NCBI GenBank assembly: GCA_964556835.1
Contig: CAZKXV010000001.1
Span: 1-34,433, forward strand
Source of the DNA: an uncultured Clostridia bacterium
GTDB lineage: Bacteria > Bacillota > Clostridia > Christensenellales > CAZKXV01
Direction: 5' to 3'
Length of the DNA stretch: 34,433 bases
Every line of letters starts with the position of its first letter. The stretch's first letter is position 1. Both the position numbers and the translations under genes were made by a program. A model generated the notes under the pieces. That model was not told where the DNA came from, ran no database searches, and saw only the letters and a program-made list of their open reading frames with translations. Below, piece after piece: positions 7,627 through 33,498 of this stretch.

Positions 7627-7912
7627 TAGCAAAGTAGATAATCCTATATAATTATAGTAGGGCTTTTATGTAAACCAATTAATTGGATGAATAAATTCTA
7701 GTCCAGTGTGCAATATTATTAGATATGCCCTCTTGTAGACAGAATAAACAAAATTAATATTTATGCAGCGAAATATTTGATTATAACCCCAACTATTACA
7801 CTTTTGTATTGATTTTATTGCTTATGCGGTTTGGTATATGGAATAATTATACATTTATACATTTTCATGAATATTTTTTTAACAAAAAAGGGGCTTTGCA
7901 TAGCCTATTAGC

Positions 7913-7941
7913 TTGCAAAAAACAGCATTTTCATATATTAT
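7913..7941 (+). promoter_or_regulatory. Candidate sigma-70-type promoter for dapF-carAB-dapL
   Basis: TTGCAA - 17 nt - TATTAT, about 45 nt upstream of the dapF ATG. Confidence 0.35.
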
Positions 7942-7984
7942 ATAATAGGCAATGTGCTAATGACTTTAATGAGGTATTCGGAAG

Positions 7985-9881: not shown

Positions 9882-9882
9882 T

Positions 9883-13104: not shown

Positions 13105-13140
13105 AATAAATAAAATAAAAAAATAAAAAAAAGGAAAAAA

Positions 13141-17178: not shown

Positions 17179-17208
17179 AGCACACCGCAGTACTGCGGTG
17201 TGCTTTTC
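17179..17208 (+). terminator. Rho-independent terminator after purA
   Basis: Perfect palindrome AGCACACCGCAGT/ACTGCGGTGTGCT followed by TTTT. Confidence 0.8.
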
Positions 17209-17222
17209 TCTTGCCCTATTAG

Positions 17223-17251
17223 TTGTATATGTTTATTCTATGTGCTATAAT
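17223..17251 (+). promoter_or_regulatory. Candidate extended -10 promoter of the DegT-family gene
   Basis: TTGTAT - 17 nt - TATAAT with TGc immediately upstream of the -10. It lies between the purA terminator and the RBS AAGGAG at 17262. Confidence 0.5.
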
Positions 17252-17275
17252 TTGCCTATTCAAGGAGATAGCAAA

Positions 17276-18466
17276 ATGAGCATTAAGTTTTCAAGAGCAG
17301 ACATTACAGAAGAAGAGATTAAAGAGGTTGTTGATACCCTGCATTCAGGATATATTACTACCGGAACAAAAACTAAGGATTTCGAAAAACAGCTTGCAAC
17401 TTTTTGTAATGTGAAGAAAGTCGCCTGTTTGAATTCAGCTACTGCTGGGCTTGAACTAATATTAAGGGTACTCGGAATAGGTGCAGGCGATGAGGTCATT
17501 ACTACTGCTTATACTTATACTGCAACCGCAAGTGTGATAAGTCATGTGGGGGCAAGAATTATATTAGTAGACACACTTAAGGGTAGCTATGAGATAGATA
17601 GTATGGGGATTGAGAATGCAATAACTTCTAGAACTAAGGTAATTATTGCGGTGGATATTGCGGGCAAGATATGCGATTATAATAAGATTTATCAAGCTGT
17701 GGAAGCAAAGGTAGACTTATTTGTGCCTAGTAATGACATTCAAGAGCGTATGGGAAGAATTGCAGTTATTGCAGATGGCGCCCATAGTTTTGGAGCCCAA
17801 AAGAATGGAATACTTAGTGGCAGCTTTGCTGATTTTACTGTATTTAGTTTTCATGCAGGCAAGAATTTGACCGTTGCTGAGGGTGGTGCAATAGCTCTTA
17901 ATGAATGTGATTTCTATGATACTGAAGAAATGTACAAGCAATTTATGATTTTTGGACTACATGGTCAGACAAAGGACAGTTATAGCAAAGAAAAATTAGG
18001 TGCGTGGGAATATGATATTGTGACACTTGGTTATAAATGTAATATGACAGATATCTCTGCAAGTATAGGCAAGATTCAACTAGCTCGATATCCTAAAATT
18101 CTAGAAAGAAGAAAAGAAATAATATCTATATATAATGACGAACTCGGTGACTTAATTGAAGTAATAGACCTATGTAATAATAAGGAATTATCAAGTGGTA
18201 CATTATACATGACAAGAATACCGAATAAGACGGAGCTTGAGCGTAATAATATAATTCTAGCGCTTGCTGAGGAAGGCATTCCTACAAATGTTCATTTCAA
18301 ACCGTTACCTATGTTCACAGCTTATAAGAGGCTAGGGTTCGATATCAAAGATTTCCCTAATGCTTATAACCAATATGCAAATGAAATAACATTGCCCTTG
18401 CATACGCTTCTAACTAATGAAGATGTGTATAAGATTATTAAAGCATTTAAGATATGTATATCTTGA
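17276..18466 (+). CDS. DegT/DnrJ/EryC1/StrS-family PLP-dependent aminotransferase
   Basis: The family PLP-lysine motif is FSFHAGKNLTVAEGG, with LNSATAGLEL upstream. The start is set at the ATG preceded by AAGGAG, because the 17198 start in the ORF track overlaps the purA terminator and the promoter. Confidence 0.85.
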   Translation: MSIKFSRADITEEEIKEVVDTLHSGYITTGTKTKDFEKQLATFCNVKKVACLNSATAGLELILRVLGIGAGDEVITTAYTYTATASVISHVGARIILVDTLKGSYEIDSMGIENAITSRTKVIIAVDIAGKICDYNKIYQAVEAKVDLFVPSNDIQERMGRIAVIADGAHSFGAQKNGILSGSFADFTVFSFHAGKNLTVAEGGAIALNECDFYDTEEMYKQFMIFGLHGQTKDSYSKEKLGAWEYDIVTLGYKCNMTDISASIGKIQLARYPKILERRKEIISIYNDELGDLIEVIDLCNNKELSSGTLYMTRIPNKTELERNNIILALAEEGIPTNVHFKPLPMFTAYKRLGFDIKDFPNAYNQYANEITLPLHTLLTNEDVYKIIKAFKICIS

Positions 18467-18469
18467 TTG

Positions 18470-18498
18470 TTGACAAATACTAATAGTTAGAATATAAT
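18470..18498 (+). promoter_or_regulatory. Consensus sigma-70-type promoter of iolG
   Basis: Perfect TTGACA - 17 nt - TATAAT, 30 nt upstream of the iolG ATG. The RBS is AGAGG. Confidence 0.6.
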
Positions 18499-18527: not shown

Positions 18528-19553
18528 ATGATTAATATTGGAATTATTGGAATGGGCAGAATTGGGCGTGTACATATGGAAAGTATATGTACTAGTGTCC
18601 CTGAAGCGAAAGTAGTAGCTATTGCAGATCCTTACTTAACTAGCGAAACCGAAACCCTTGCCCTAGAGAAATACAAGGTACTTAATGCCTACAAAGATTA
18701 CAAAAAAATCCTATCTGATGATAGTATTGATGCGGTGGTGATTTGTTCATCGACTGATACACATTCAGCTATCTCAATTGAAGCGCTTAAAGCGGGTAAA
18801 CACGTTATGTGTGAAAAGCCTATTGATACTGACTACAAAAGAATAATAAAAGTGGTCGAGGCTGTGAAAGAGAACAGTCATTTGAAATTTCAAGTTGGGT
18901 TTAATAGAAGATTTGACCATAATTTTATGGCACTTAAGGAACAAAGTAAGAATCTAGGTGCTATTCACATTATTAAGATTACATCACGTGACCCTGCTCC
19001 ACCACCAATTGAGTATATCAAAGTATCGGGGGGATTATTCAATGATATGATGATTCATGACTTAGATATGGTGCGTTTTTTGTCCTCATCTGAAGTGGAA
19101 GAAGTTCACGTATATGGCGGAGCCTTAGTAGATAAACGCATAGGCGAGGCAGGCGATATTGATACTGCTATCGTTAGTATGAAATTATCAAGTGGCGCTT
19201 TCGCTGTTATTGATAATTCAAGACAAGCTGTGTATGGATATGACCAGAGAGCTGAAGTATTCTGTGCAAATGGTATGGTATGCTCAGAAAACGATGCCCC
19301 AAGTACAGTGAAAGTAGTTACATCTAGTGGTGTAAATAGTGAAAAACCACTACATTTTTTCCTTGATAGATATATGCAAGCATATGCAAAAGAGCTAAAA
19401 TGTTTCGTAGAAGCAATAATAAATGATACGCCGACTATTTGTAATGAGACTGATGGTCTAAAACCATTCTTGATAGCTAAAGCGTGTGCAAAATCATTAT
19501 TAGAAAGTAGACCTGTGACAATAGCAGAAATTGAAGAAGAGTTAAGCAGATAA
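18528..19553 (+). CDS. iolG: Inositol 2-dehydrogenase (Gfo/Idh/MocA family)
   Basis: Rossmann motif IGIIGMGRIGRVH, then CEKP and VGFNRRFDHNF motifs of the IolG/IdhA type. It is adjacent to iolE/D/B. Confidence 0.75.
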   Translation: MINIGIIGMGRIGRVHMESICTSVPEAKVVAIADPYLTSETETLALEKYKVLNAYKDYKKILSDDSIDAVVICSSTDTHSAISIEALKAGKHVMCEKPIDTDYKRIIKVVEAVKENSHLKFQVGFNRRFDHNFMALKEQSKNLGAIHIIKITSRDPAPPPIEYIKVSGGLFNDMMIHDLDMVRFLSSSEVEEVHVYGGALVDKRIGEAGDIDTAIVSMKLSSGAFAVIDNSRQAVYGYDQRAEVFCANGMVCSENDAPSTVKVVTSSGVNSEKPLHFFLDRYMQAYAKELKCFVEAIINDTPTICNETDGLKPFLIAKACAKSLLESRPVTIAEIEEELSR

Positions 19554-19575
19554 AAAGAATGATATAATATCAAAA

Positions 19576-19616
19576 ATGCCCCACTAGTATGATAGGTAGT
19601 GGGGCATATTTTTTTT
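19576..19616. terminator. Bidirectional terminator between the convergent iolG and iolE genes
   Basis: ATGCCCCACTA-loop-TAGTGGGGCAT, flanked by AAAAA on the left and ATTTTTTTT on the right. Confidence 0.8.
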
Positions 19617-19623
19617 GTATATA

Positions 19624-20514
19624 TTAATAATTAAGTGATTTTGTTATGTAATCATATGCATATTTTGCATAAGCTAAGGGGTTCGCTTTTTTCGGGTCTT
19701 GTTCAGCCTCAACTACTAACCAGCCTGTATAATCATTTTCTTGTAAGACTTTGAATATTGGGTTAAAATCAATATTGCCATCGCTAGGCACAGTAAATAC
19801 TCCTTCGATAACTGAGTCTAGAAAGCTAAGTTCATTGACTAATGCACCAGCAAGTATAAAATTACGAGTATCTTTCAAGTGAATGTGTTTGATACGCTTA
19901 ATATATTTATTAAGCAAGAATAAAGGGTCAATATCATCATAAGAACAATGACCAGTATCGAATAATAAATTGACATATTGAGGATTAGTAGCTTCCATAA
20001 ATCTATCAATTTCAGCTATTGTCTGAATGCCGGTGCACATATGATGATGATAACTCATTACCATTCCTTTGTCGTATGCTATCTTACCTAATTTGTTAGC
20101 ACCTGCAATAACACTCTCCCATTGGGATTCATTAAAAGCAGACTCTCTGACAGTTACAGGAATATTCTTCTGTTGGGTTGAAGTACCTTGTTCGCTAATC
20201 CCTATATTAGTGCAACCTATAGAAAGTAAGAAATCACAGAACTCTATAAATAATTTCTCAGTATATTCGTAAGGCTTAGTTGATAGGTATGTACTGAACC
20301 AAGAATTGCAAATCTTCAAATTTCTTAATGATAATTCATTATTTAGTTCGGTAGCATCTTTTGGGAAACAACCTCCTAATTCAGTACCGCTAAAACCTGC
20401 TTGTGCTACTTCTTCTAGAATTTGTTTGTAACATGTACCTTTTCCAAGTTCGGGTAGGTCATCATTTACCCAGCCAATAGGCGCTATAGCTAATTTAATA
20501 TTGCTTTTGGTCAT
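19624..20514 (-). CDS. iolE: Inosose dehydratase
   Basis: LAIAPIGWVNDD N-terminus, YHHHMCTGIQT, and VVEAEQDPKKANPL motifs match B. subtilis IolE closely. The RBS is AAGGAG. Confidence 0.85.
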   Translation of the reverse strand: MTKSNIKLAIAPIGWVNDDLPELGKGTCYKQILEEVAQAGFSGTELGGCFPKDATELNNELSLRNLKICNSWFSTYLSTKPYEYTEKLFIEFCDFLLSIGCTNIGISEQGTSTQQKNIPVTVRESAFNESQWESVIAGANKLGKIAYDKGMVMSYHHHMCTGIQTIAEIDRFMEATNPQYVNLLFDTGHCSYDDIDPLFLLNKYIKRIKHIHLKDTRNFILAGALVNELSFLDSVIEGVFTVPSDGNIDFNPIFKVLQENDYTGWLVVEAEQDPKKANPLAYAKYAYDYITKSLNY

Positions 20515-20516
20515 CT

Positions 20517-22445
20517 TTAGTATCTCCTTGATTTATTCAATTCCTTTTTCATCGCTTTTGTTGCGATTGTAATACTTTCTTTTTCTGCAATTTCAGCATT
20601 TCCAACTCTCCAGAATGATTCATATCCATCAGTCATAGTCTTAGGTAATACTTTTATATCAATTAAGGTACTGACAGTTTGTTTCTTTGAGTCCTCTATT
20701 GCTTGAATTAATTGTTGTTCATTTTTAACCGTATAAGTAATACAACCATAGGCCTTTGCATTCATTGCATAGTCAACTTTAACTAATTCGCCATTAAGTC
20801 CACTGGCTGTTCTTTTTCTTGTTTCTGTGAAGAAACTACCCATGCCGTGTCCCATTTGTAGATTGTTAATGCACCCGAATGAAATATTATCAAAGACAAG
20901 TACATTTATTTTCCTGTTTTCTTGTATGGAAGTCAAAAGCTCTGAATTAAGCATCATATATGAGCCATCGCCAACAAAAGCATAAACTTCTTTGGTAGGT
21001 TCAGCGAGTTTCGCTCCCAGTGCGCCTGCAATCTCATATCCCATACAGCTATAACCGTATTCCATATGATATGTATTAGGGCTTTTAGGTCGCCATACTC
21101 TTTGCATATCGCCAGGGAGTGAGCCGCTTGCTCCAACAACTATTGCGTCTGTTGCGAGTAAATTATTTATGATGCTAAGAACTCTGGTTTGGGTTAGGGT
21201 AGAGCCATTAATTGCGATATATTCGTCTATTTTATCATCAAGGTGTCCACTTATTTCTGGAATGAAATTATCTTTATACTTAATATTATCTAGTCTATCC
21301 AATTCCTTTATCCAAGCTTTTTTAGCGTTTAAGTATTCGTTAGTATAAGCCGACCTATATGAGATTTCTGCAAGCTCAGAGGCGATAGCTTGTAGTGCGA
21401 CTTTCGCATCAGCACAAACTCTTACAGCGTCTAGTTTATAGCAGTCGAATGCAGCTATATTTATATTGAGATAATCCACATTAGGATTCTGAAAAAGCCA
21501 CTTAGAAGAAGTGGTAAAATCGGTATATCTAGTTCCTACTCCAATAACTAAGTCGGTCTCTTTTGCGATAATATTTGCACTAAGGTCGCCAGTTGTTCCA
21601 ATCCCACCAAGGTTATATGGGTTATCCCAAACTATTGCGGATTTGCCTGCTTGTGTTTCTGCAAAAGGTATATTAAAAGCTTTTGCAAATTCTAGCAATT
21701 CTGCACCAGCCTCGCTATATTTGACACCACCACCACATATTAGTAGGGGTTTCTTTTTTGACTTAATTAATGCTATGGCTTCTTTAATCATATATGGTGT
21801 AGCGGGCGTTCTTTCTATGCGATGCACTCGTTTATCGAAAAAAGAAACTGGATAATCGTAAGCCTCGCCTTGTACATCTTGTGGTAGACAGATTGTTACC
21901 GCACCTGTTTCAGCAGGGCTAGTGAGTACCCGCATTGCGTTAATCATGGAGGACATAAGTTGTTCGGGTCTGGTTATTCTGTCCCAGAACTTGCTTACTG
22001 CCTTAAATGCATCATTTGTGGATACTGTTAAATCGTTAAACTGTTCAAGCTGTTGTAGAACAGGGTCAGGCTGTCTATCTGCGTATACATCTCCCGGTAG
22101 TAACAATAATGGCAATCTATTAGCCGATGCAGTTGCGGCTGCAGTTAACATATTAGCTGCGCCTGGTCCTACTGAAGAGGTGCAAGCATATATTCTCTTT
22201 CTTAGGCTTTGTTTGCCGAATGCGGCTGCAGCATGCGCCATTCCCTGTTCATTCTTCGCTTGATGAACGACTAATCTTCCGCCTCGCTCCTCTAATGCTT
22301 GTCCTAATCCTAATACATTTCCGTGTCCAAATATTGTAAATACTCCCTCAACAAAAGGTTCTTCTCTATCATCGAATGCTACATATTGGTTCTTAAGGAA
22401 TTCTATAAGTGCTTGAGACATGGTTAATCTAATAGTTCTGCTCAT
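20517..22445 (-). CDS. iolD: 3D-(3,5/4)-trihydroxycyclohexane-1,2-dione hydrolase (ThDP-dependent)
   Basis: [20 protein letters not shown]-terminus and ThDP motif [12 protein letters not shown]. The start is set at the ATG at 22445, which makes an ATGA overlap with the iolB stop and has GGGGG upstream. The ORF track gives 22460. Confidence 0.9.
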
Positions 22446-23236
22446 TTTTCTGACCCCCATATTTTCGCATTAGAGTCATTGACCCAAGTATGCTCTTCTA
22501 CAAATGTAGGAGTAATGTATCTGTCATTTTCTAAGTGTCTGATTACCCATACGTATAACATTGCGTAACCGGGTGCTGTTGTCTGGGGATGCGTTGCTCC
22601 TGCGGGTATTAATACGGCATCATTTTCTCTTACTTTCACCACATCTTCGCCTAATTCGCAGAAACCATATCCATTGACAGGATTGAATTTGTAGAAATAT
22701 ATTTCTGGTTGTGGATGATGATGAGGCGGATAACTAGACCATTTACCGGGGTAATCTATCACTTCGCCTAATACTAAGTTTGCATAAGGGGCATTGCTAT
22801 TATCGAATATTGTACGCACATTCCTTGTGCTTGTATCGCCCATTGTACCTTTGCCACGCATTTCAGATGCAACATCTTCTGATGAGTAAAATACAGGTTC
22901 AAATTCGTTATTATTTGTAGTTGCTTGATATACTAACTCCGCTTGTTTGCTAGTGCATATTATCTCGACTTTAACTCCTTTGGGGATATGCAGGCATACA
23001 CAAGATACATTAAATGGATTAGAACGCTCCGCTTTAATACTTTTTCCATTGTAATTGAAAATGACACTGCCTTTCATAAGTAAATATGCACGCTCAAGAG
23101 GTTCTTCATTTACTATTTTATCACCACTTTCGAGAAGAAATAGTCCAAAGTCCATTAATGCACTTTTATAGTTGCCGTTCATTTCAGTAATGCTGTTGTA
23201 TCCTCTGATATAGGGTGAATCTGATCTTATTCTCAT
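22442..23236 (-). CDS. iolB: 5-deoxy-glucuronate isomerase
   Basis: Cupin-type protein with the [16 protein letters not shown] motif of IolB. It is the first gene of the iolB-D-E operon. Confidence 0.85.
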
Positions 23237-23272
23237 TATGAAAACTCTCCTTGCTTGTTAATGAATATCAAC

Positions 23273-23301
23273 ATTATACTATAATTTACTAGCTTGTACA
23301 A
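23273..23301 (-). promoter_or_regulatory. Candidate promoter of iolBDE
   Basis: On the minus strand, TTGTAC - 17 nt - TATAAT, about 35 nt upstream of the iolB ATG. The RBS is AAGGAGAG. Confidence 0.5.
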
Positions 23302-23302
23302 G
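23293..23302. promoter_or_regulatory. Candidate operator: perfect 10-bp palindrome overlapping the iolB -35
   Basis: CTTGTACAAG is a perfect palindrome, flanked by TAGCT direct repeats. Confidence 0.3.
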
Positions 23303-23372
23303 TAGCTATATTATTTTTTGTAATAAAAATTAGTATTATTTAATCTAATATGCTTGAATTACAAATATTAAT

Positions 23373-23402
23373 TTGCCATTATTTGCGTAAATGGTGTATA
23401 AT
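23373..23402 (+). promoter_or_regulatory. Candidate promoter of the lacI-gap-pgk-larA-like operon
   Basis: TTGCCA - 18 nt - TATAAT. The spacer contains the near-palindrome ATTTGCGTAAAT (23381-23392) with a central CG. Confidence 0.4.
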
Positions 23403-23439
23403 GAATAAATTATGATGATTATCTTATGTGGAGCAGGAG

Positions 23440-24453
23440 ATGACTAAATACGATGTAGTAACAATTGTTGATATAGCTGAACGTATAGGTGTATCATGTG
23501 CTACTGTTTCACGTGCATTAAATGGCAAAAAGGGTGTTGGAGAGAGAAAACGCAAAATGATAATTGAATTGGCGAACGATTTGTGTTATGAACCAAATGC
23601 TATTGCGCAAGGCTTAAGAGAGAAAGCATTTAAGACTATTGGTTTAGTAATTCCCGATATTGCAAATCCATTATATCCTGCTATAGCTCGTGGTGTTGAG
23701 GACAAGGCTTTAGAATATGGGTATAATGTATTTTTATGTAATAGTAACTGGAGTGTTGAGATTGAGCAGACGCAGATCAAATCATTAAAACAGCTTAGAG
23801 TTGCGGGGTTAATACTTAATCCTACTTCTGATATTTTTGAAGATAATTATAAAGACACTAATATACCTAGTGCATATATTAGTTCAAGGCTAGATGAAAG
23901 GTATAAGCCTTATGTGGGAGTTGATAATGTTCAAGCAGGCTTCATTGCGACTGAATACTTAATTAAATGTGGTTATACTAGAATAGGATTTATCGGTGGA
24001 ACTGCAAAATCTTATGATAGCGAGACTAGATACGAGGGTTATCTCAAAGCGCTTAAACACTATGGCTTAAATTGCGATGAAAGTTTATGCGAATTCGGTT
24101 GGTATAGCTTGAGAAGTGGTAAGAATATCATGACTAAGCTACTTGAACTTGACAATCCATGCGATGCGGTTTTCTGTGCTAATGATACTATAGCTATAGG
24201 GGCGCTGAGCGCTGCTAATAGTATGAATATAAGTGTACCTGATGAGTTAGGTATTATGGGTTTTGATAATATAAGTATGGCAGAAATTCCACAACTTGAG
24301 CTTAGCACAATTTCTATTCCTAAGTATGAAATGGGAGTAGCCGCAGTGGAATTGCTAATGCAAGTTATACAAGGAACAGAGGGCGAAGAGCATAAAGTTC
24401 TTGAACCTGAATTAATAATAAGAAAAACAACAAAAAAATTGTTCGGAGGATAA
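23440..24453 (+). CDS. LacI-family transcriptional regulator
   Basis: N-terminal HTH VTIVDIAERIGVSCATVSRALNG followed by a periplasmic-binding-protein-like sugar-binding core. The ATG at 23440 has GGAG 6 nt upstream. The ORF track starts at the GTG at 23428. Confidence 0.9.
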   Translation: MTKYDVVTIVDIAERIGVSCATVSRALNGKKGVGERKRKMIIELANDLCYEPNAIAQGLREKAFKTIGLVIPDIANPLYPAIARGVEDKALEYGYNVFLCNSNWSVEIEQTQIKSLKQLRVAGLILNPTSDIFEDNYKDTNIPSAYISSRLDERYKPYVGVDNVQAGFIATEYLIKCGYTRIGFIGGTAKSYDSETRYEGYLKALKHYGLNCDESLCEFGWYSLRSGKNIMTKLLELDNPCDAVFCANDTIAIGALSAANSMNISVPDELGIMGFDNISMAEIPQLELSTISIPKYEMGVAAVELLMQVIQGTEGEEHKVLEPELIIRKTTKKLFGG

Positions 24454-24454
24454 G

Positions 24455-25480
24455 ATGAATAAAATTAAAGTAGCAGTAGTAGGATATGGCGTTATAGGTC
24501 AAAGATTAGCAGATGGAGTAAGTTATCAAGCAGATATGGAGTTAGTGGGTATTGTTGATGCCGCTCCAACTCTCACAATGATGACTTTACTAGAAAAGGG
24601 TATGCCATATAAAGTATATGCGGCTTTTCCTGAAGCAAAAGAACAACTTGAAAATGCAGGTATTCCAGTAAGCGGACTAATGACAGACATATTACAACAG
24701 GTAGATGTTGTACTTGATGCAACTTCTGCGGGTATTGGTGCGAAGAACAAAGTGCTTTATGAGAAATATAATGTCAAAGCTATCTTCCAAGGCGGAGAAA
24801 GTAATGATGTGGCAGATGTATTCTTCCATGGATATGCTAATTATGAGAAAGCCTTAGGCAAAAGCTTCTTGAAACTTACTAGTTGCAATACTACAGGTCT
24901 AATTCGTGCGGTTGATTGCCTTGACCGTATGGTCGGCATAGAAAAGATAGCTATTACAATCGTAAGAAGAGTAGCTGACCCTGGTGATTATCATAGAGGC
25001 TTGACCAATGCCCTACAAGTAGATAAAGCTCCTAGTCATCAAGCTCTTGACTTGATGACCATTATGCCACATATCGAGGCTACTGGTATTCTTGTTCATA
25101 CACCTATTACACACGGACATTTTATTACTGTAGTTGCTACTCCGAAAAAAGATATTTCTGTAGAAGAAGCTATTAACGCTTTTAGAGCTCATCCAAGAAT
25201 TAAGATGGTTACAATCGACCAAGGCTTCTTAGGTAATGCTTCTGTATTCAAATATGCTAGAGACTGTGGCAAACTGCGTGGTGATGTATATGAGATATAT
25301 GTATGGGAAGATTTAATTGTGAAATCTGGCAAAGATATTATGTTTGGTATACATATTCCACAAGAATCCGTAACTATTCCAGAGACAATAGATGGTATCA
25401 GAGCACTTATGAATATGCAAATTGATAGAATTGAAGCTACTAATGAAACCAATAAATACTTAGGTATGGAGCAGAAATAA
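24455..25480 (+). CDS. Class II (archaeal-type) glyceraldehyde-3-phosphate dehydrogenase homolog
   Basis: The protein is collinear with archaeal GAPDH: VVGYGVIGQR, GIGAKN..KAIFQGGE, catalytic TSCNTTGL (Cys144, nt 24884-24886), VRRVADP, and QESVTIPE. The bacterial GapA signature SCTTN is absent. The RBS is GGAGGA. The gene starts 1 nt after the lacI stop. Confidence 0.85.
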   Translation: MNKIKVAVVGYGVIGQRLADGVSYQADMELVGIVDAAPTLTMMTLLEKGMPYKVYAAFPEAKEQLENAGIPVSGLMTDILQQVDVVLDATSAGIGAKNKVLYEKYNVKAIFQGGESNDVADVFFHGYANYEKALGKSFLKLTSCNTTGLIRAVDCLDRMVGIEKIAITIVRRVADPGDYHRGLTNALQVDKAPSHQALDLMTIMPHIEATGILVHTPITHGHFITVVATPKKDISVEEAINAFRAHPRIKMVTIDQGFLGNASVFKYARDCGKLRGDVYEIYVWEDLIVKSGKDIMFGIHIPQESVTIPETIDGIRALMNMQIDRIEATNETNKYLGMEQK

Positions 25481-25481
25481 T

Positions 25482-26720
25482 ATGAAAATGAACAGGTTAT
25501 CCGCCTATGACTATTCTAATAAGACCGTACTAGTCAGAATAGATATTAATTCGCCAATAGACAGTATTACAAAGAAAATTGTAAGTAGGAACAGATTAAC
25601 AAAATCTATTCCCACTTTGAAATATTTGATTGACAGTGGTGCTAAAATCGCAATTATAGCTCATCAAGGGGACACTTTAGATTACTATAACTTAATCTCT
25701 ATGCAAGAGCATAGCGAGATACTAAGCGAGTTATTAGGACAAAGCGTAAACTACATAGATGATGTAGCAGGCGATTGTGCAATCGAAGCAGTTAAGAACT
25801 TGAAGAGTGGGGAAATAATATTGCTAGGAAATTTGAGGTATCTTGCCGAAGAAATTTCCACATTTGAAGAGGTAGTGAAACTTACCCCAAATGAAATGTT
25901 AGATTGCTACCTTGTAAGAAGATTGGCGCCATTATTCCAATATTATATAAATGATGCTTTCAGTGCAGCGCATAGAAATGCACCATCAATGGTCGCTTTT
26001 CAAGAGCTATTGCCGAGTGTAGCGGGCGAGTTGTTTTATACAGAAATAGAGAACCTTGACCGTATTATGAGTGCACCTAATAAACCATCTGTGTTCGTTC
26101 TTGGCGGTGCTAAGATTTCGGATGCTTTCGGAATGATGGAACAAGTTCTTATGAATGGTACAGCGGATACTATTCTAACCGCTGGTGTGACAGGGCTTGT
26201 CTTTATGATAGCAGATGGTATAGATGTAGGAAAGATGACAAACAAGTTCTTGGAAGATAGAGGATTAACTAGTTTCATCGATGATGCTAGAAAATATCTT
26301 AAAACCTATCCAAATAAAATTAAGTATCCAATAGATATATGTTATGCCGAAGCGGGGATACGTTACGAAGTTACTTGTGATAAGTTACCACTTGAAAAGA
26401 GTTTTCTTGATATAGGTTCATTAACTATAGCAAGTTACCAGAAAATATTATTGGAGGCGAAAACCATATTTGTAAATGGTCCAGCAGGGGTATACGAGCA
26501 AGAAATATTTGCGATAGGAACTTGTGATATTTGGAAAGCTATAGCCGCTAGTAATGGGTACAGCGTTATAGGTGGCGGTGATACCGTTAGTGCAGCATCG
26601 AAATTTATAGACCTTAAAGATATTGGTTATGTATGTACAGCAGGGGGTGCAATGGTTCGTTACCTGAGTGGAAAGACGCTTCCCCTTATAAAGGCGATGC
26701 AGAAAGCTTACAAAGAATAA
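25482..26720 (+). CDS. pgk: Phosphoglycerate kinase homolog, archaeal-like
   Basis: PGK motifs VLVRIDINSPID, IIAHQG, LLGNLRY..EE, NDAFSAAHR, VLGGAKISD, and IGGGDTVSA are present in order. Length is 412 aa. The gene starts 1 nt after the GAPDH homolog. Confidence 0.85.
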   Translation: MKMNRLSAYDYSNKTVLVRIDINSPIDSITKKIVSRNRLTKSIPTLKYLIDSGAKIAIIAHQGDTLDYYNLISMQEHSEILSELLGQSVNYIDDVAGDCAIEAVKNLKSGEIILLGNLRYLAEEISTFEEVVKLTPNEMLDCYLVRRLAPLFQYYINDAFSAAHRNAPSMVAFQELLPSVAGELFYTEIENLDRIMSAPNKPSVFVLGGAKISDAFGMMEQVLMNGTADTILTAGVTGLVFMIADGIDVGKMTNKFLEDRGLTSFIDDARKYLKTYPNKIKYPIDICYAEAGIRYEVTCDKLPLEKSFLDIGSLTIASYQKILLEAKTIFVNGPAGVYEQEIFAIGTCDIWKAIAASNGYSVIGGGDTVSAASKFIDLKDIGYVCTAGGAMVRYLSGKTLPLIKAMQKAYKE

Positions 26721-26750
26721 TTATAGAAATAAACATAAGGAATATTACTA

Positions 26751-28004
26751 ATGATTACTCATAATCTTAAGTTTAATAAAGAAATCCTAAGTTTCGATAT
26801 TGAAGAAGACAACTTAATTAGCTGTCTTATTCCTAATGCTATAGATTATGAATTTAAGAGTACAGAGGCGGTTAGAAATGCTATACTTAATCCTATAGGA
26901 ACAGCTCGCTTAAAAGACATTGTAAGTAGAGGTGAAACTGTTGCAATAGTTACTAGTGATATTACTAGACCTATGCCATCTAAGACCGTTCTTCCATTTG
27001 TGATAGAAGAATTACTTGAGGGCGGTATCAAAGAGTCAGATATTTTCATTGTGCTTGCACTAGGAAGTCATAGAAAGCACACAGCCGAAGAAATGAAATA
27101 TTTAGTAGGTAATGATATTTATAATAGTGAAATAAGAGTAATGGACAGCGATATGGAAGATTGTGTTTGCTTAGGTAAATGTAAGAATGGAACACCAGTA
27201 GATATTTATACGCCAGTAGCTGAAGCGGACAGAGTTATTTGCTTGGGTAATGTCGAATTTCATTATTTTGCAGGATACAGCGGAGGTGCGAAAGCACTTA
27301 TGCCAGGGGTATCAAGTTGGGAAGCAATACAAGCTAACCATTCTAATATGGTCAAGGCGGGTGCAGAAGCGGGTAATTTGATTTCTAATCCAGTTCGCCA
27401 AGATATTGAAGAAACAGCAGAATTTATTAAGATAGATTTTATTGTTAATGTTGTACTAGATGATAAGAAAGAGATTGTAGGGGCAGTAAGTGGACATTAT
27501 TCTAAAGCACATAGAGTAGCTTGCAAAATGTTAGATAGACTATACTCTGTAGATATTGAAAAGAGAGCTGATATTGTGGTCGTTTCGGCAGGCGGGTATC
27601 CTAAGGATATCAATATATATCAAGCACAAAAAGCGTTAGATAACGCAAAAGGCGCTGTTAGAGAAAGCGGGATTATAATTCTAGTAGCAAGTTGTAAAGA
27701 GGGGTTTGGAGAGCATACTTTCGAAGAGTGGATGACTACAATGACACCTGATAAAATGATAGATACAATCAAAAAAGATTTTAAGCTTGGGGGACATAAG
27801 GCAGCAGCTATCGCTATGATACTCAAGAAAAATAAGATTTTTCTTGTTAGTGATTTGGATAATGCGATAGTTCGTAGTATTGGTTTTGAGCCATTTGCGA
27901 CTGTTGATAATGCTCTTTATCAAGCATATAAGGAGATAGGGGAGAAGGCACAACTATACATTATTCCTTATGGAGGCTCAATTCTACCTAAACTAAAGAT
28001 ATGA
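26751..28004 (+). CDS. LarA-family nickel-pincer-nucleotide-dependent 2-hydroxyacid racemase/epimerase homolog (DUF2088 type)
   Basis: SDITRP, LGSHR (His107), FHYFAGYSGGAK (His171, Lys181 at nt 27291-27293), and ANH (His197). The spacing is the same as His108/His174/Lys184/His200 of L. plantarum LarA. Confidence 0.85.
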   Translation: MITHNLKFNKEILSFDIEEDNLISCLIPNAIDYEFKSTEAVRNAILNPIGTARLKDIVSRGETVAIVTSDITRPMPSKTVLPFVIEELLEGGIKESDIFIVLALGSHRKHTAEEMKYLVGNDIYNSEIRVMDSDMEDCVCLGKCKNGTPVDIYTPVAEADRVICLGNVEFHYFAGYSGGAKALMPGVSSWEAIQANHSNMVKAGAEAGNLISNPVRQDIEETAEFIKIDFIVNVVLDDKKEIVGAVSGHYSKAHRVACKMLDRLYSVDIEKRADIVVVSAGGYPKDINIYQAQKALDNAKGAVRESGIIILVASCKEGFGEHTFEEWMTTMTPDKMIDTIKKDFKLGGHKAAAIAMILKKNKIFLVSDLDNAIVRSIGFEPFATVDNALYQAYKEIGEKAQLYIIPYGGSILPKLKI

Positions 28005-29836
28005 AAAAAAAGAGTTATATTATATTTTTCTTGATTATACTAGCTTTAATTGCTAGTCTTTCTGCATGTAATTTCAAAGATAATCAAACAATTACAATTA
28101 GTTTCCATAATAATGGAGGAACTGGAGTTATGTCCAATATGGAAGTAGATATTAATTCAGATGTGACCATTATTGAGAATACATTTACTAGAGAGGGATA
28201 TGATTTCAGCGGTTGGGCATTTTCGGCTGAGGGAGAAGCATTAGCTTATAGTGGCGAAGAATACCGTATAGGTGAATTGGATATTGAACTATACGCTGTA
28301 TGGACACTTAGCCCTAATATAATAATCTTTCATTCGAATAATCAAATTGATATTACTACAAACATTGATATATTTTATGGTGAGATAATAGCTCTGCCAT
28401 TTAATACTTTTGAAAATGAAGGATATATATTTGGAGGTTGGGGATTAACTGCGGACTCAGAAGTTATTTTTGATGATGGTGCAAATTATACTTTTAATAT
28501 CAGACAAGATATTAACTTATACGCAATCTGGTATGAGTTGAAATATACAGTATCGTATAATACAACGAATGGATCGGGCGAAATGTCAGACTACCTAGCT
28601 TATGAAGGAGAGTCATTGACCTTAACTTTATGTAACTATTCCTATAATCATCGTGACTTCTGCGGTTGGGCAACGGTTACGGGAGGCGAGGTAATACACC
28701 TAGATGGTGCAGAAATTGAGATTAATGGTGATTTGAATTTATATGCAGTCTGGGCGATAGTTGATTATACTATCACTTTGGATTATAATGAACTTGCTAC
28801 TAATACTACTCTAGAAGTGCAAGCATTAGGTCAAGTTGCACTACCTCTTGCAGAGGAAATTACTGGTATGAGTTTTGATGGTTGGTATTTCGATAGTCAA
28901 TATACGCAATCCATAAACTTCCCATATGCAATAATCAGCGACCATACTATATATGCGAAGTATTCTCCATTATATGTAGTCAACTTCTATGATTATGATG
29001 ATACTCTACTTAAGACTTCCTATGTGCAAACTGGTGCTAATGCTGAAGCACCAAGCGAACCTACAAGAGAGGGATATCAATTCGACTGCTGGAATAATAG
29101 CTATATAAGCATTACTTCATCAATAGATATTTATGCTCAGTATAATGCTCTAGAATATACGGTCACATTTAACTCAAACGGTGGAACTGGAACAATGCAA
29201 GATTTTTCCGTTTTATACGAAACTTCAGCAAATTTACCTGCAAACCTTTTTGTTAGAACAAATTATAGATTTCTAGGATGGTCGCAGGAAGCACTGGGCA
29301 GTGCTATATATGAGGATAATGGTATCTTTACTATGAATTTATTAGGAGTCACACTGTATGCTATATGGGAATATGGGATAGAATACTTATATTGCGAACT
29401 TTCAAATGGTTATACTATTACTAATGTACTACAGGGCACTAAAATGGTGGAGATTCCTAATACATATGATGATGGCTTAAATGGTACAGCAGAGGTATTA
29501 ATTATAGGCGAGGAAGCCTTTATGAATAATGATGTACAATCAGTTATCTTAGGTGAAAACATAACCAAAGTTGAGATAAATGCTTTTAAGGGTTCAACTG
29601 TAAGTGATATAACTTTGAATGAAGAGTTAACAGAGATAGGAAATTATTGTTTCAAAGATTGTATAAGTCTAACTTCAATAATTATTCCAAGTGGTGTGGA
29701 TATAGTGGGTATTGGCATCTTCTCGGGGACAAATACTGATGTATATTGTATACGTGGTATAGAAGGAGTGGGCTGGGATACTTCTTGGGACAATGAAATG
29801 GAAGGTATCGTTATATGGAATTATACGGAGGTCTAA
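28001..29836 (+). CDS. Surface lipoprotein with about 6 Listeria-Bacteroides-type (Flg_new) repeats and a C-terminal BspA-type leucine-rich repeat region
   Basis: Signal peptide with lipobox LSAC (Cys23). Repeating ~70-aa units of the form F..NGGTG.M......REGY.F.GW........LYA.W. The C-terminus has LRR units (I.I..NAF...T.L..I.IP..V..IG). The ATGA overlaps the upstream stop. Confidence 0.8.
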   Translation: MKKKSYIIFFLIILALIASLSACNFKDNQTITISFHNNGGTGVMSNMEVDINSDVTIIENTFTREGYDFSGWAFSAEGEALAYSGEEYRIGELDIELYAVWTLSPNIIIFHSNNQIDITTNIDIFYGEIIALPFNTFENEGYIFGGWGLTADSEVIFDDGANYTFNIRQDINLYAIWYELKYTVSYNTTNGSGEMSDYLAYEGESLTLTLCNYSYNHRDFCGWATVTGGEVIHLDGAEIEINGDLNLYAVWAIVDYTITLDYNELATNTTLEVQALGQVALPLAEEITGMSFDGWYFDSQYTQSINFPYAIISDHTIYAKYSPLYVVNFYDYDDTLLKTSYVQTGANAEAPSEPTREGYQFDCWNNSYISITSSIDIYAQYNALEYTVTFNSNGGTGTMQDFSVLYETSANLPANLFVRTNYRFLGWSQEALGSAIYEDNGIFTMNLLGVTLYAIWEYGIEYLYCELSNGYTITNVLQGTKMVEIPNTYDDGLNGTAEVLIIGEEAFMNNDVQSVILGENITKVEINAFKGSTVSDITLNEELTEIGNYCFKDCISLTSIIIPSGVDIVGIGIFSGTNTDVYCIRGIEGVGWDTSWDNEMEGIVIWNYTEV

Positions 29837-30588: not shown

Positions 30589-33498
30589 CTAGTCAGCTAG
30601 CACTTCTATATTATTATTATCTAGATTTAACACACATAGATTACCTGTACTATTAGTAGGCTCTGGAACCGAACCCTTGACTTGCCACACGTCAATGAAA
30701 TAGACCTTGTTGCCTATTACTTGTGCATAACACATATAATATACATCTAATCCATCTACTAAAACTGCCACAGGTGTTTCTGCGGTCATATCAACCTTAT
30801 ACAAACCCTTATTGCTTGAACCTATAAGATTACCCACATTACGATAATAGTATATATAGTCACCACTAATAAAAAAGCTTCTAGCATCATTTGTAGTTCC
30901 TAGACTCTCAAAATCATTTACAGTATCACTACTAATATCATACTCAGAGAAATTATTACTAAATGCTTTATCATTCATTAAATATATCTTACCATCCACT
31001 ACCTTATATTCATTAGGTTTAAGATCGCTATTCAATACTGCTGCAGTAGAGTCTTCATATGTATATAGAAGATTGTCAGCCACAAAATATACAATGCCAT
31101 TTTTATAATATACAGAAAAATCTTCTACGGTCTCATCATCAAATATAATAGTGTCATTCTGTCCATCTAAGTCCATCTTGTTGAGAGTGTTGCTATCTGT
31201 AAAATTTGCGTAGTATATTGCGTCATCCGAGAATGCTAAGTGCATACATTTCTCGGTAGATATTCTTATTAATGCACCAGTAGTAAGATTCATCTTATAC
31301 AAATCGAAATTAACCCCAAACCTTACAGATGAGTAGTAGAGATAATCGCCATCAATAGCAAAGTCTGCCACTCTAAGACCTGTAATACGATATTCTGCAT
31401 CATTTGGAATACTGTACTTATAGAGTCTACCACCGTCACGCATATTTATGTAGTATAGCTCACCATTATATTGTTCCATCTTCTCATAATATGTAGCTAT
31501 CACTGTAGGATACTCAGGTACAACGAAGCCTTCCATTATATCAACTTCTGTTTCTGAAGCAACTTCATAAGTATACAAGTGTTTGTCGCTTGTTCTATAA
31601 TAATATAGGTCTGTACCATCTGTTGAAAGAGAATACACATTGTCATCAGTCGCATCAACTACAAGAGATGCACCTGTCAATAAACTAAAGGTATCACCTA
31701 CCCAGCTAGAACCATCTTTTGCAACTCTATATATACCATCACCGAACACAGTACTTGTTACCAAGTCAGTATTTACAAAGTATATATATGAGCCCGCTAT
31801 TGCTAGATATTTGCCCTTTGAATATGTTATTTTTGTAATTTCTGTTGACTCATCTGTCAATGGAAGTGTTAGTGAGCTGTTGGTATCAATAGAGAATATC
31901 GCAGCCCCTGCACTCATATTAGTAAGAGTGAAGTGTCTAGTAAAATACAAGTGTCCGTTATCCACAATAATATCAGATACATTGTAATCATATACTAGTG
32001 TTGCAGTCCCGTTATTTGCAGTCGAGCTAATTCTATACAGTTTACTTCCATCATCTTTATTTGAGAAGTATACATAGCCATTTGAATATACTAGATATGC
32101 AGCCTTAGATGTAGTAAGTCTTGTTGGTACAGGGTCAATACTATCATCATTTATGTCTTCAACAGATATCTTATATATACCATTTTCACTTATGCTAAAT
32201 AAATTGTTTACAGCAAAATACAAGTTAGTACCATCATTAATTAGATACTCTGCATTTACAGGTAGTAGATTTTCACTATTTGTACCATCGAAACTTGCTA
32301 TACCCGAAGATAATAGGCTAGGACTCATATAATACAATTCGCCTCCAACTTCTGTAAAGTATTCTGGCTTCTCGTTATTTACTTTTTCTACGCTAGTGCC
32401 ATCATACTTGTACATCTTGTTATTATCAAGTGAATTCTGGAAGTACACTTCGGAATCATATACTGCGGTAGATAATAATTGCTCAAGCGAGACAATTCTT
32501 ATTGTTGCATTAAGTGTGTGAGTTATATAATTTACACCAGAGACAACGGCTTGTATAGCATAAACGCCTACACTAGTTGCAGAGTTTGCTCCGTTTTCAC
32601 CGCCACTATATGTTACCACAACTCCAGAAGGAATATTACCAGTAACAGTAATGCTATGCGCTCCAGCATCATAGTCAAATATCCAACTATCGAAAGTGAT
32701 TGTAGGAAGTGATATTTTGTTGATTGTAAGAGTTGCGGTATCGGTATAATCGTTATAATTTGCCATAGTCACAGTAACACTTGCATTATATGTACCAGCA
32801 TCAGTTACAACATTACCAGCGTAGGTAGGTGTAGCTCCCGTTGGGATACCCGTTGCTAAGATATTCTTTTCTGAACCATCATAATTACAACTTACATCAT
32901 CAAATGAAATACCAGAAAAATTAAGCTTATTTATAGTAAGAACCGCAGAACCTGTATATGGATTATATCCATCTTGAGTTATAGAGACACTAGCATTGTA
33001 TGTACCTGCATTAGTGCCAGTATTACCTGTATAGCTTACATCAGCTCCAGTTGGTATACCTGTTGCAAGCACACTCTTCTCTGAACCATCATAATCATAA
33101 CTGACATCATCGAACACAATGGTTGTAAAATACGGAAGACTTGAGTCTCCACTCGCAACGATTGTAAGTATTGCAGTTGCCGTATAGGTATTGTATCCTT
33201 CTTGAGTAACTGTAACTTCTGCAGTATATTCGCCAACATCTGTAGCAGTATTATTTGTATAAGTAGCAGTAGCCCCTGTTGGTATACCTGTTGCCACAAT
33301 ACTCTTAATTGTACCATCATGGTCATAGCTTACATCTTCAAATACTATGCCAGTGAAATCTAGAAGTGTGACATCACCACTATCTACTATTATCTTATCA
33401 GTTACGGCTTCACATGAAATAAGCATAGCTGACGCCATACTAATTATCACAATAACCATTAATACTTTTACAATTGAATTTTTATCTTTTGAATGCAT
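30589..33498 (-). CDS. Large surface lipoprotein: 4 tandem MBG-like (YGX-type) domains plus a long beta-propeller-like repeat region (DUF5050-like)
   Basis: Signal peptide with lipobox LISC (Cys29). There are four ~70-75 aa repeats of the form F.DVSY.YDG..K...ATGIPTGA...Y.GN..T.AGTYNA.V.....YN.YT..A.LTI. About 14 recurrences of the blade-like motif G..(L/I)Y(Y/F)......LY(K/R) follow. The RBS is GGAGGA. Confidence 0.85.
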   Translation of the reverse strand: MHSKDKNSIVKVLMVIVIISMASAMLISCEAVTDKIIVDSGDVTLLDFTGIVFEDVSYDHDGTIKSIVATGIPTGATATYTNNTATDVGEYTAEVTVTQEGYNTYTATAILTIVASGDSSLPYFTTIVFDDVSYDYDGSEKSVLATGIPTGADVSYTGNTGTNAGTYNASVSITQDGYNPYTGSAVLTINKLNFSGISFDDVSCNYDGSEKNILATGIPTGATPTYAGNVVTDAGTYNASVTVTMANYNDYTDTATLTINKISLPTITFDSWIFDYDAGAHSITVTGNIPSGVVVTYSGGENGANSATSVGVYAIQAVVSGVNYITHTLNATIRIVSLEQLLSTAVYDSEVYFQNSLDNNKMYKYDGTSVEKVNNEKPEYFTEVGGELYYMSPSLLSSGIASFDGTNSENLLPVNAEYLINDGTNLYFAVNNLFSISENGIYKISVEDINDDSIDPVPTRLTTSKAAYLVYSNGYVYFSNKDDGSKLYRISSTANNGTATLVYDYNVSDIIVDNGHLYFTRHFTLTNMSAGAAIFSIDTNSSLTLPLTDESTEITKITYSKGKYLAIAGSYIYFVNTDLVTSTVFGDGIYRVAKDGSSWVGDTFSLLTGASLVVDATDDNVYSLSTDGTDLYYYRTSDKHLYTYEVASETEVDIMEGFVVPEYPTVIATYYEKMEQYNGELYYINMRDGGRLYKYSIPNDAEYRITGLRVADFAIDGDYLYYSSVRFGVNFDLYKMNLTTGALIRISTEKCMHLAFSDDAIYYANFTDSNTLNKMDLDGQNDTIIFDDETVEDFSVYYKNGIVYFVADNLLYTYEDSTAAVLNSDLKPNEYKVVDGKIYLMNDKAFSNNFSEYDISSDTVNDFESLGTTNDARSFFISGDYIYYYRNVGNLIGSSNKGLYKVDMTAETPVAVLVDGLDVYYMCYAQVIGNKVYFIDVWQVKGSVPEPTNSTGNLCVLNLDNNNIEVLAD
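32491..33363 (-). repeat. Tandem intragenic repeats encoding the four MBG-like domains
   Basis: They cover aa 46-336 of the 969-aa protein. Repeats 2 and 3 are the most similar (ATGIPTGA, DAGTYNASV). Confidence 0.65.

Follow-up and report, generated by a model that had tools for sequence, protein, structure and literature searches.

The canonical route of myo-inositol catabolism, as described in Bacillus subtilis (IolG-IolE-IolD-IolB-IolC-IolJ-IolA), spends ATP and yields dihydroxyacetone phosphate and acetyl-CoA. Here, we analysed a stretch of 34,433 nucleotides from an uncultured Clostridia bacterium, in which an operon headed by a LacI-family repressor gene combines homologs of type II glyceraldehyde-3-phosphate dehydrogenase (GAPDH), phosphoglycerate kinase (PGK) and the nickel-pincer enzyme LarA. 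The first four steps of the canonical pathway, to 5-dehydro-2-deoxy-D-gluconate (DKG), are represented nearby by the same enzyme families, whereas IolC, IolJ and IolA were found neither in the stretch nor among the annotated neighbours of related clusters. We propose that the locus probably encodes a variant ending of myo-inositol catabolism, which replaces IolC, IolJ and IolA and which, through a transketolase, the GAPDH and PGK homologs and a malate racemase, would give malate and ATP. The trio itself is very likely a non-glycolytic, malate-producing module tied to inositol catabolism. The sequence base of this work, further called the window, is the whole 34-kb stretch, which equals an entire contig of a metagenome-assembled genome (MAG); absences at the locus refer to that window, and all functional readings come from comparative genomics.

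The enzymes of the trio have described counterparts. Archaeal GAPDH (structures 1CF2 and 2CZC) and PGK (2CUN) have their folds, catalytic residues and chemistry (thiohemiacetal oxidation, phosphorolysis and phosphoryl transfer to ADP) in common with the window proteins; the latter, however, share about 40% identity with them, belong to a bacterial clade of their own and occur in catabolic, never in glycolytic, contexts. The malate racemase Mar2 (LarAH6) of Thermoanaerobacterium thermosaccharolyticum (6D6Z; PMC7583248) shares with the window LarA homolog the equivalog model, the His-Lys signature, the residues for catalysis and cofactor binding, and malic enzyme as an associated gene. That study did not settle what Mar2 does physiologically, while the window racemase would be tied, in the proposed pathway, to a specific source of D-malate. 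A context table of the LarA superfamily given there gives malic enzyme (15%) as the sole entry of group 6 and lists PGK (17%) with another group, without interpretation (PMC7583248).

As for the proposed intermediates, in the carnitine pathway of Acinetobacter malic semialdehyde is oxidised stereospecifically to D-malate (PMC11353897). The L-carnitine pathway of A. baumannii contains the same 3-hydroxy-4-oxobutanoate, the same D-malate and a dedicated D-malate enzyme as proposed here; its decarboxylating kind of D-malate dehydrogenase is matched by a D-malate/tartrate dehydrogenase in three of the related loci that carry iol genes. However, the semialdehyde dehydrogenase of A. baumannii is a non-phosphorylating member of the aldehyde dehydrogenase (ALDH) superfamily that forms no ATP, whereas the window GAPDH/PGK pair would conserve the acyl energy. 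A kinase, a phosphorylating semialdehyde dehydrogenase, malyl phosphate and malate semialdehyde also make up a synthetic route to 2,4-dihydroxybutyrate (PMC5481828). That route employs engineered aspartate kinase and aspartate-semialdehyde dehydrogenase, starts from L-malate, carries its phosphate at C4, runs reductively and was presented as non-natural; the window module, as proposed, would be natural and oxidative, with D-malate and a C1 phosphate.

In the sulfo-TK (sulfoquinovose) and apiose pathways, a split transketolase cleaves a ketose with a non-phosphate anionic tail and the C2 unit enters the pentose-phosphate pool. The route proposed here would likewise use a split transketolase, encoded within the cluster in half of the related iol loci, but its proposed substrate is a keto-deoxy sugar acid, and the aldehyde would then undergo substrate-level phosphorylation.

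The operon consists of the following genes:

23440..24453 (alternative start 23428), plus strand: LacI-family repressor, the first gene of the operon (PF00356 plus Peripla_BP_1/3/4).
24455..25480, plus strand: type II (archaeal-type) GAPDH homolog from a bacterial clade of its own, proposed to be a phosphorylating, NAD+-dependent D-malate-semialdehyde dehydrogenase (family models, residues).
25482..26720, plus strand: archaeal-like PGK homolog, proposed D-malyl-1-phosphate:ADP phosphotransferase (PF00162, structure matches, residues).
26751..28004, plus strand: LarA-family nickel-pincer enzyme of the LarAH6/Mar2 malate-racemase type, proposed to convert D-malate to L-malate (NF052593, Mar2, His349-Lys350).

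The GAPDH homolog scored 393.9 bits with the type II GAPDH model NF003251 (cutoff 185) and 293.1 bits with TIGR01546 (cutoff 232.9), and its best matches in the Protein Data Bank (PDB) were four archaeal GAPDH structures at 211-249 bits (M. fervidus 1CF2; P. horikoshii 2CZC, 245-249). The enzyme belongs to a sharply bounded, discrete bacterial clade, further called GAPDH-II: among 1.84 billion representative proteins, clade representatives matched it at 462-504 bits and 61-66% identity, and the next full-length relatives reached at most 44% and 280 bits. In a set of 5.8 billion proteins, the top 120 matches were all 72-79% identical and came from Clostridia and Spirochaetes. A scan of one genome per species with the clade-specific peptides VFFHGYAN and VADPGDYH gave 599 stretches, 585 of which were confirmed, from Clostridia, Spirochaetota, Gammaproteobacteria, Victivallales, Atribacterota, Planctomycetota and others. 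Identity within the clade is at least 69% across distant phyla, Gammaproteobacteria included, and such a high value suggests a horizontally spread accessory gene.

A plasmid search for the clade returned only another type II GAPDH clade, 35-38% identical to the window enzyme and located in metal-resistance islands, a result that does not inform on the window module. This other clade was present on 35 plasmids; in the two inspected, those of Rhodococcus rhodochrous (L087, NZ_CP120357, 7001-8014) and Paracoccus sp. AK26 (L088, pAK2, 7001-8008), its gene adjoins those of heavy-metal P-type ATPases; in one plasmid a multicopper oxidase gene accompanies them, in the other that of a CopY-like regulator. 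This enzyme may be a replacement GAPDH that is insensitive to metal and travels with copper-resistance islands.

In M. fervidus GAPDH, the functional residues are Cys140, His219, Ser139 and Asn141, together with Arg167, Arg168 and His193 at the phosphate sites (PMC12041015). We compared 122 GAPDH-II with 81 outgroup sequences. The catalytic and phosphate-site residues are kept, as C144, H222, S143, N145, R171, R172 and H195 are invariant in all 122 clade members. The window enzyme differs from its archaeal counterparts at two further positions: His194 of the inorganic phosphate site is replaced by the clade-invariant Q196 (His in 80% of the outgroup), and Lys33, the NADP determinant of the M. 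fervidus enzyme, by the clade-invariant D35 (Lys is the commonest residue in the outgroup). K140, Y179, H180, R181, H215 and H220 are invariant in GAPDH-II only. Since Asp35 occupies the NADP-determinant position, NAD+ is the predicted cofactor and a catabolic, oxidative role is predicted. It is the gene context that argues for a physiological substrate other than D-glyceraldehyde-3-phosphate (GAP).

The PGK homolog matched PF00162 with 347.5 bits; its best PDB match was the Pyrococcus horikoshii enzyme (2CUN, 307 bits), well above bacterial PGKs (200 bits or less). Across 66 clade PGKs, the catalytic and nucleotide-site residues K215, E343, D374, N336, G395 and G396 (human numbering) are invariant, and so are D23, N25, R38, H62, R122 and R170. 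In mammalian PGK, Arg65 and two further arginines bind the 3-phosphate of 3-phosphoglycerate (3-PG), within a basic patch of Arg65, Arg122, Arg170 and His62 (PMC7729029). Directly after H-x-G, the window PGK (D64, 'AHQGDT') and the clade examples inspected have Asp, whereas bacterial and eukaryotic PGKs have Arg at this position and that of P. horikoshii has Lys. The basic patch for the 3-PG phosphate is thus incomplete, with H62, R122 and R170 present and Asp as the Arg65 equivalent. Altogether, the residue evidence from GAPDH-II and PGK is consistent with the proposal but modest.

The LarA homolog, composed of the Pfam domains Lar_N and LarA_C, looks like a malate racemase by every available sequence test. 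It scored 540.7 bits with NF052593 (nickel-dependent malate racemase, LarAH6 family; cutoff 500), and its closest PDB relative is Mar2 (6D6Z, 370 bits), with lactate racemases at 234 bits or less. Aligned to L. plantarum LarA1, its D72/R75, H108, H174, K184 and H200 correspond to D70/R73, H107, H171, K181 and H197, so that the catalytic His pair, the cofactor-binding Lys/Arg and the nickel-ligand His are all present. Malate racemases have a His/Gln-Lys signature, the Lys of which pairs with the second carboxylate of malate (PMC11770544), and the window protein has His349-Lys350 at LarA1 positions 358/359. Its racemase activity is inferred from the 370-bit similarity to the characterised Mar2. 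We found no larB, larC or larE in the window.

The four genes of the operon are separated by 1, 1 and 30 nt. The ATG of LacI at 23440 is preceded by GGAG 6 nt upstream and is also the start that was called independently on a metagenome contig of identical sequence (L086). The repressor has an N-terminal helix-turn-helix domain (PF00356) and a periplasmic-binding-protein-like effector domain (PF00532, PF13377) according to Pfam, and no NCBIfam model reached its equivalog cutoff for this protein. A scan of the window detected no terminator-like site after the LarA gene. A preliminary description of the locus had already recorded the tight packing with these gaps, and our ORF calling gave the same gaps; its assignment of the GAPDH to class II, of the PGK to an archaeal-like type and of intact chemistry residues to LarA agrees with the family models, structure matches and alignment given above. 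It had also pointed out that a LarA homolog nested among lactate racemases would speak against its reading, and the protein turned out to be of the Mar type instead.

The inositol genes lie close to this operon, with the iolB-like gene, iolD and iolE divergent from it and iolG beyond them, a context that was absent from the preliminary description:

18528..19553, plus strand: iolG, inositol 2-dehydrogenase (myo-inositol to scyllo-inosose; TIGR04380, 428.4 bits, cutoff 355).
19572..19611, no strand: hairpin where the 3' ends of iolG and iolE converge, a candidate for a terminator acting in both directions (15-nt arms, 93% complementary, 10-nt loop).
19624..20514, minus strand: iolE, myo-inosose-2 dehydratase (TIGR04379, 364.6 bits, cutoff 290).
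20517..22460, minus strand: iolD, thiamine diphosphate-dependent trihydroxycyclohexane-1,2-dione hydrolase, which gives 5-deoxy-D-glucuronate (TIGR04377, 930 bits, cutoff 715).
22442..23236, minus strand: iolB-like isomerase of the KduI/IolB family, presumed to convert 5-deoxyglucuronate to 5-dehydro-2-deoxygluconate (PF04962, 171 bits).
23237..23439 (203 bp), no strand: divergent control region between the iolB-like gene and lacI (promoter-like sites, palindrome).

Measured against a canonical iol cluster, iolG, iolE and iolD pass their equivalog cutoffs and the IolB-like protein matches at the Pfam family level only. Because the latter scores 97 bits with TIGR04378 (cutoff 205), we regard it as a divergent subfamily, and this subfamily recurs in 24 of the 75 clade loci discussed below. 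No iolC, iolJ, iolA, transketolase or inositol transporter gene was found in the window; most related clusters, whereas this contig shows no such gene near iol, have an ABC, MFS or TRAP uptake system.

Neighbourhoods of GAPDH-II were surveyed in 75 loci of up to 21 kb, in which ORFs were called and clustered without prior labels; ORF cluster 24, a shadow ORF antisense to iolG, was excluded. The PGK homolog directly follows GAPDH-II on the same strand in 67 of the loci; of the eight others, five are cut off by the end of a contig. A LarA homolog occurs in 42 loci and malic enzyme in 27, and the His-Lys malate signature, in the form G[GYA]HKAA, is present in 45 of 48 neighbouring LarA proteins. 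Altogether, GAPDH-II is accompanied by a malate-signature LarA, malic enzyme or D-malate/tartrate dehydrogenase in 48 of the 75 loci. Two or more iol genes are present in 30 loci, and half of these (15/30) also carry a split transketolase. Not one of the 75 loci placed the GAPDH-II/PGK pair in a glycolytic context, and neither PfkB kinase, class II aldolase nor ALDH (the IolC, IolJ and IolA types) was seen among the annotated neighbours in related loci. Uptake transporters and catabolic regulators are also encoded in related clusters.

Three arrangements recur. The type with transketolase reads ABC transporter-ME-GAP2-PGK-TktN-TktC-IolB-IolD-IolE-IolG-LarA (ME, malic enzyme; GAP2, GAPDH-II) and is found in Caloramator, Clostridium magnum, C. 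tanneri, C. peptidivorans and Fonticella. The type without transketolase, to which the window locus belongs, reads IolG-IolB-IolD-IolE-GAP2-PGK-LarA in Breznakiella, Parasphaerochaeta and Sphaerochaeta, and the genes are co-directional in the first two. A transaminase type, represented by 10 of the 75 loci, has no iol genes and runs sigma-54 activator-GABA-transaminase-like aminotransferase-GAP2-PGK-malic enzyme-LarA, often with a TRAP transporter. Clostridium magnum DSM 2767 has two GAPDH-II/PGK copies on two contigs (L034, L054), one in a full iol/transketolase cluster and the other in a malic enzyme-GAP2-PGK-LarA cluster; as the contexts are both catabolic and different, the pair appears to be a reusable catabolic module.

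A gene matching TIGR02089 at 495-521 bits (cutoff 470) lies inside the cluster in three of the iol-type loci, which come from Clostridium ganghwense and from MAGs of Victivallales and Bacteriovoracaceae. The NCBIfam name of this model is tartrate dehydrogenase, and the family includes D-malate dehydrogenases of the decarboxylating kind, E. coli DmlA for instance. Two of these loci (L028, L076) showed no LarA and no malic enzyme in the available sequence. The D-malate/tartrate dehydrogenase thus looks like a non-orthologous replacement of the racemase and L-malic enzyme. The same upstream genes followed by either of these two solutions are what would be expected if the product of GAP2-PGK were D-malate.

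On this basis, the following route can be proposed. IolG, IolE, IolD and the IolB-like isomerase, assigned by homology, would produce DKG. Read from its ketose end, DKG is HOCH2-CO-CHOH-CHOH-CH2-COO-, and its hydroxyls are D-threo (3S,4R), as required of transketolase donors and by the aldolase IolJ; both points derive from established structures. The compound therefore resembles xylulose-5-phosphate, its carboxylate standing where the latter has a phosphate ester. A transketolase would move its C2 ketol unit onto an aldose phosphate and leave OHC-CHOH-CH2-COO-, which is (R)-3-hydroxy-4-oxobutanoate, i.e., D-malate semialdehyde, a carboxylate look-alike of D-GAP; the stereochemical derivation from D-gluconate numbering gives (R) and hence D-malate. 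The type II GAPDH homolog would then convert D-malate semialdehyde, NAD+ and phosphate to D-malyl-1-phosphate and NADH, and the PGK homolog would transfer the phosphoryl group to ADP, giving D-malate and ATP. Since D-malate cannot be used by L-specific enzymes, a racemase is needed, and the LarA homolog would supply L-malate to central metabolism. LacI presumably represses both divergent units until an inositol-derived effector appears.

That the product is malate is supported by the Mar type of the LarA homolog, its His-Lys signature and the malic enzyme neighbours. The transaminase-type loci are accounted for as well, since transamination of 4-amino-3-hydroxybutyrate would give D-malate semialdehyde; we count this independent convergence on the same aldehyde in favour of the proposal. 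D-malate semialdehyde as substrate and D-malate as product are, in our judgement, the likely assignments, and a transketolase as the cleavage step in the window organism, whose window encodes none, is less certain than these. The preliminary description had put forward a co-transcribed, ATP-yielding module (aldehyde, acyl phosphate, 2-hydroxyacid, C2 epimer) acting on a substrate other than GAP or 3-PG, and comparative genomics backs this idea. Among its candidate substrates was an inositol-derived aldehyde; the trio is indeed joined to iolG/B/D/E clusters, and the candidate is here refined to D-malate semialdehyde, which had not been named. One of the checks it called for, conservation of the trio, was carried out: GAPDH-PGK-LarA recurs across phyla, so a lack of co-occurrence in other genomes, which would have counted against the module, was not observed.

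Several observations weigh against this proposal. The whole pathway, for all members of the GAPDH-II clade, is inferred from comparative genomics. Both arginines of the GAP-phosphate site are kept in GAPDH-II, so the enzyme may also act on GAP. The PGK residue comparison had an outgroup of three sequences only, and the residue after H-x-G was assigned by motif position, as the automatic alignment is gapped in that column. Like the window, about half of the iol-type loci, mainly spirochaetal, have no transketolase within 10 kb, and cleavage there would depend on a gene located elsewhere or on another reaction. Moreover, some contexts are not explained by the scheme. Three gammaproteobacterial MAG loci (L053, L055 and L061, around 8100-13500) have Amidohydro_2 and TRAP genes and no LarA, and two neighbourhoods from Acidaminobacter and Tindallia MAGs (L014, 7099-15558, and L042) also fall outside it.

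In the three gammaproteobacterial loci, two conserved proteins of about 315 and 157 residues, without a Pfam family, are encoded beside GAPDH-II/PGK. The gene order in L014 and L042 is aldehyde:ferredoxin oxidoreductase-KduI/IolB-like isomerase-GAPDH-II-PGK-Asp/Glu-racemase-family protein-malic enzyme-LarA, and iolD and iolE are absent; this suggests that these loci lead another sugar acid to malate.

The simplest alternative is that GAPDH-II and PGK are ordinary glycolytic enzymes acquired from archaea, which drain the triose phosphate of an IolC/IolJ route encoded elsewhere, with LarA unrelated to them. Both proteins do pass generic family models, the equivalents of Arg167/Arg168 for the GAP phosphate and R38, H62, R122 and R170 of PGK are retained, and the source genome is seen only through one 34-kb contig. 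We nevertheless consider this explanation quite improbable: none of the 75 loci has a glycolytic context, and the pair sits instead in catabolic clusters with malate racemase, malic enzyme or D-malate dehydrogenase. In addition, the Arg65 equivalent of PGK is Asp in the window and in the inspected examples, C. magnum keeps its two copies in different catabolic contexts, the clade identity of at least 69% across distant phyla fits a mobile accessory module, and the transaminase-type clusters would be left without a role.

About equally improbable is 5-deoxy-D-glucuronate, the product of IolD, as the substrate, in which case GAPDH-II and PGK would yield 5-deoxy-D-glucarate and ATP, and the LarA homolog would epimerise C2 of this six-carbon diacid. 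It is the sole free aldehyde formed by the four iol enzymes of the window, the scheme dispenses with transketolase, which suits the seven-gene clusters that lack one, and Mar-type enzymes act also on tartrate, another dicarboxylic 2-hydroxyacid (PMC11770544). However, the conserved IolB-like isomerase would have no role, the transketolase (15/30 iol-type loci), malic enzyme and D-malate dehydrogenase would be unexplained, as would the transaminase-type clusters without iol genes, and no cluster offers downstream enzymes for a six-carbon diacid. Slightly less probable still is another small 2-hydroxy aldehyde (glyceraldehyde to glycerate, or tartronate semialdehyde), with LarA as a racemase of glycerate or another 2-hydroxyacid, or operation of the module in the reductive direction. 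Some LarA homologs racemise glycerate (PMC11770544) and assigning a substrate from sequence alone is uncertain, but the window protein shows the malate-type His-Lys pair and scores above the Mar equivalog cutoff, a four-carbon dicarboxylate is indicated by the malic enzyme and D-malate dehydrogenase neighbours in related loci, and the predicted NAD+ specificity of Asp35, the uptake transporters and the catabolic regulators point to an oxidative, catabolic direction. Each of these main alternatives leaves several conserved neighbours unexplained, and we prefer the D-malate semialdehyde pathway.

The preliminary description knew of no described pathway with this trio. In agreement, we found no text linking inositol, transketolase, type II GAPDH/PGK and malate racemase in the full-text literature, which leaves most subscription journals outside coverage, and the novelty is thus provisional. 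A gut inositol review, a large iol survey and an Anaerostipes paper do not mention the genes of the trio. Two further papers proved irrelevant: in a 2026 Nat Chem paper about nickel-dependent aldo/keto reductases, 5-deoxyglucuronate isomerase appears solely as a neighbour gene, and a paper on iron regulation in C. difficile deals with a true lactate racemase, encoded in an Etf/LDH operon.

Regarding transcriptional signals, a perfect sigma-70 consensus (TTGACA-17-TATAAT, 18470-18498) precedes iolG, and the divergent region has a plus-strand promoter-like site at 23373-23402 (TTGCCA-18-TATAAT, 11 of 12 matches). The palindrome GCTTGTACAAGT at 23292-23303 overlaps a minus-strand promoter-like site at 23300-23273. 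It does not recur before iolG, and its frequency with up to two mismatches is no higher than in shuffled sequences, so we treat it as a candidate operator only. The hairpin at 19572-19611 was not called by the consensus terminator scan.

At 17198-18466 (plus strand), 61 nt before iolG and with the perfect promoter consensus in between, lies a gene for a pyridoxal phosphate-dependent aminotransferase of the DegT/DnrJ/EryC1 family. Its best match is PseC, at 273 bits and below the cutoff of 423. The family includes scyllo-inosose aminotransferases, and an aminocyclitol link of this gene is conceivable.

The remainder of the window is housekeeping: metG, tatD, rsmA, nagA, ung, dapF, carAB, dapL, purF and purA. 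Among other genes, 4430-5650 (plus strand) encodes an unusual fusion of an aldo/keto reductase with a C-terminal 4Fe-4S dicluster (ferredoxin-like) domain, overlapped and followed by an M28/M42-like peptidase gene at 5634-6887 (plus strand). A surface protein with Listeria-Bacteroides repeats and BspA-type leucine-rich repeats (LRR) is encoded at 28001-29836 (plus strand); as its start codon overlaps the LarA stop codon, it may be co-transcribed with the metabolic operon. Convergent to it, a 969-residue MBG/DUF5050 surface protein is encoded at 30589-33498 (minus strand).

If the proposal is true, the breakdown of inositol by bacteria would have a further ending, widespread and so far undescribed. 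A 2026 isotope-probing study of the poultry gut noted, and left unexplained, the distribution of iolG/E/D/B without iolC/iolJ (PMC13617567). The pathway would explain why many bacteria possess iolG, iolE, iolD and iolB but not iolC and iolJ, and would close a gap in gut and anaerobe metabolism. It would be ATP-positive in comparison to the ATP-spending canonical route, with a new natural acyl phosphate, D-malyl-1-phosphate, and an ATP-conserving step. Hundreds of proteins labelled "type II glyceraldehyde-3-phosphate dehydrogenase" or "phosphoglycerate kinase" would be wrongly annotated at the substrate level, which affects metabolic models, and natural enzymes would become available for engineered malyl-phosphate and dihydroxybutyrate routes.

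In its broadest form, towards which we lean with some reserve, the idea is that bacteria recruited archaeal-type GAPDH and PGK for a 'carboxylate glycolysis', in which the places of xylulose-5-phosphate, GAP and 3-PG are taken by their carboxylate look-alikes DKG, D-malate semialdehyde and D-malate, respectively. Such a system, with a natural D-malyl-1-phosphate and a new substrate-level phosphorylation, would be reused for inositol, for amines of the 4-amino-3-hydroxybutyrate type and for other compounds in hundreds of species, most of them anaerobes. It would, moreover, be the physiological reason for the existence of nickel-pincer malate racemases, whose role their discoverers left open (PMC7583248).

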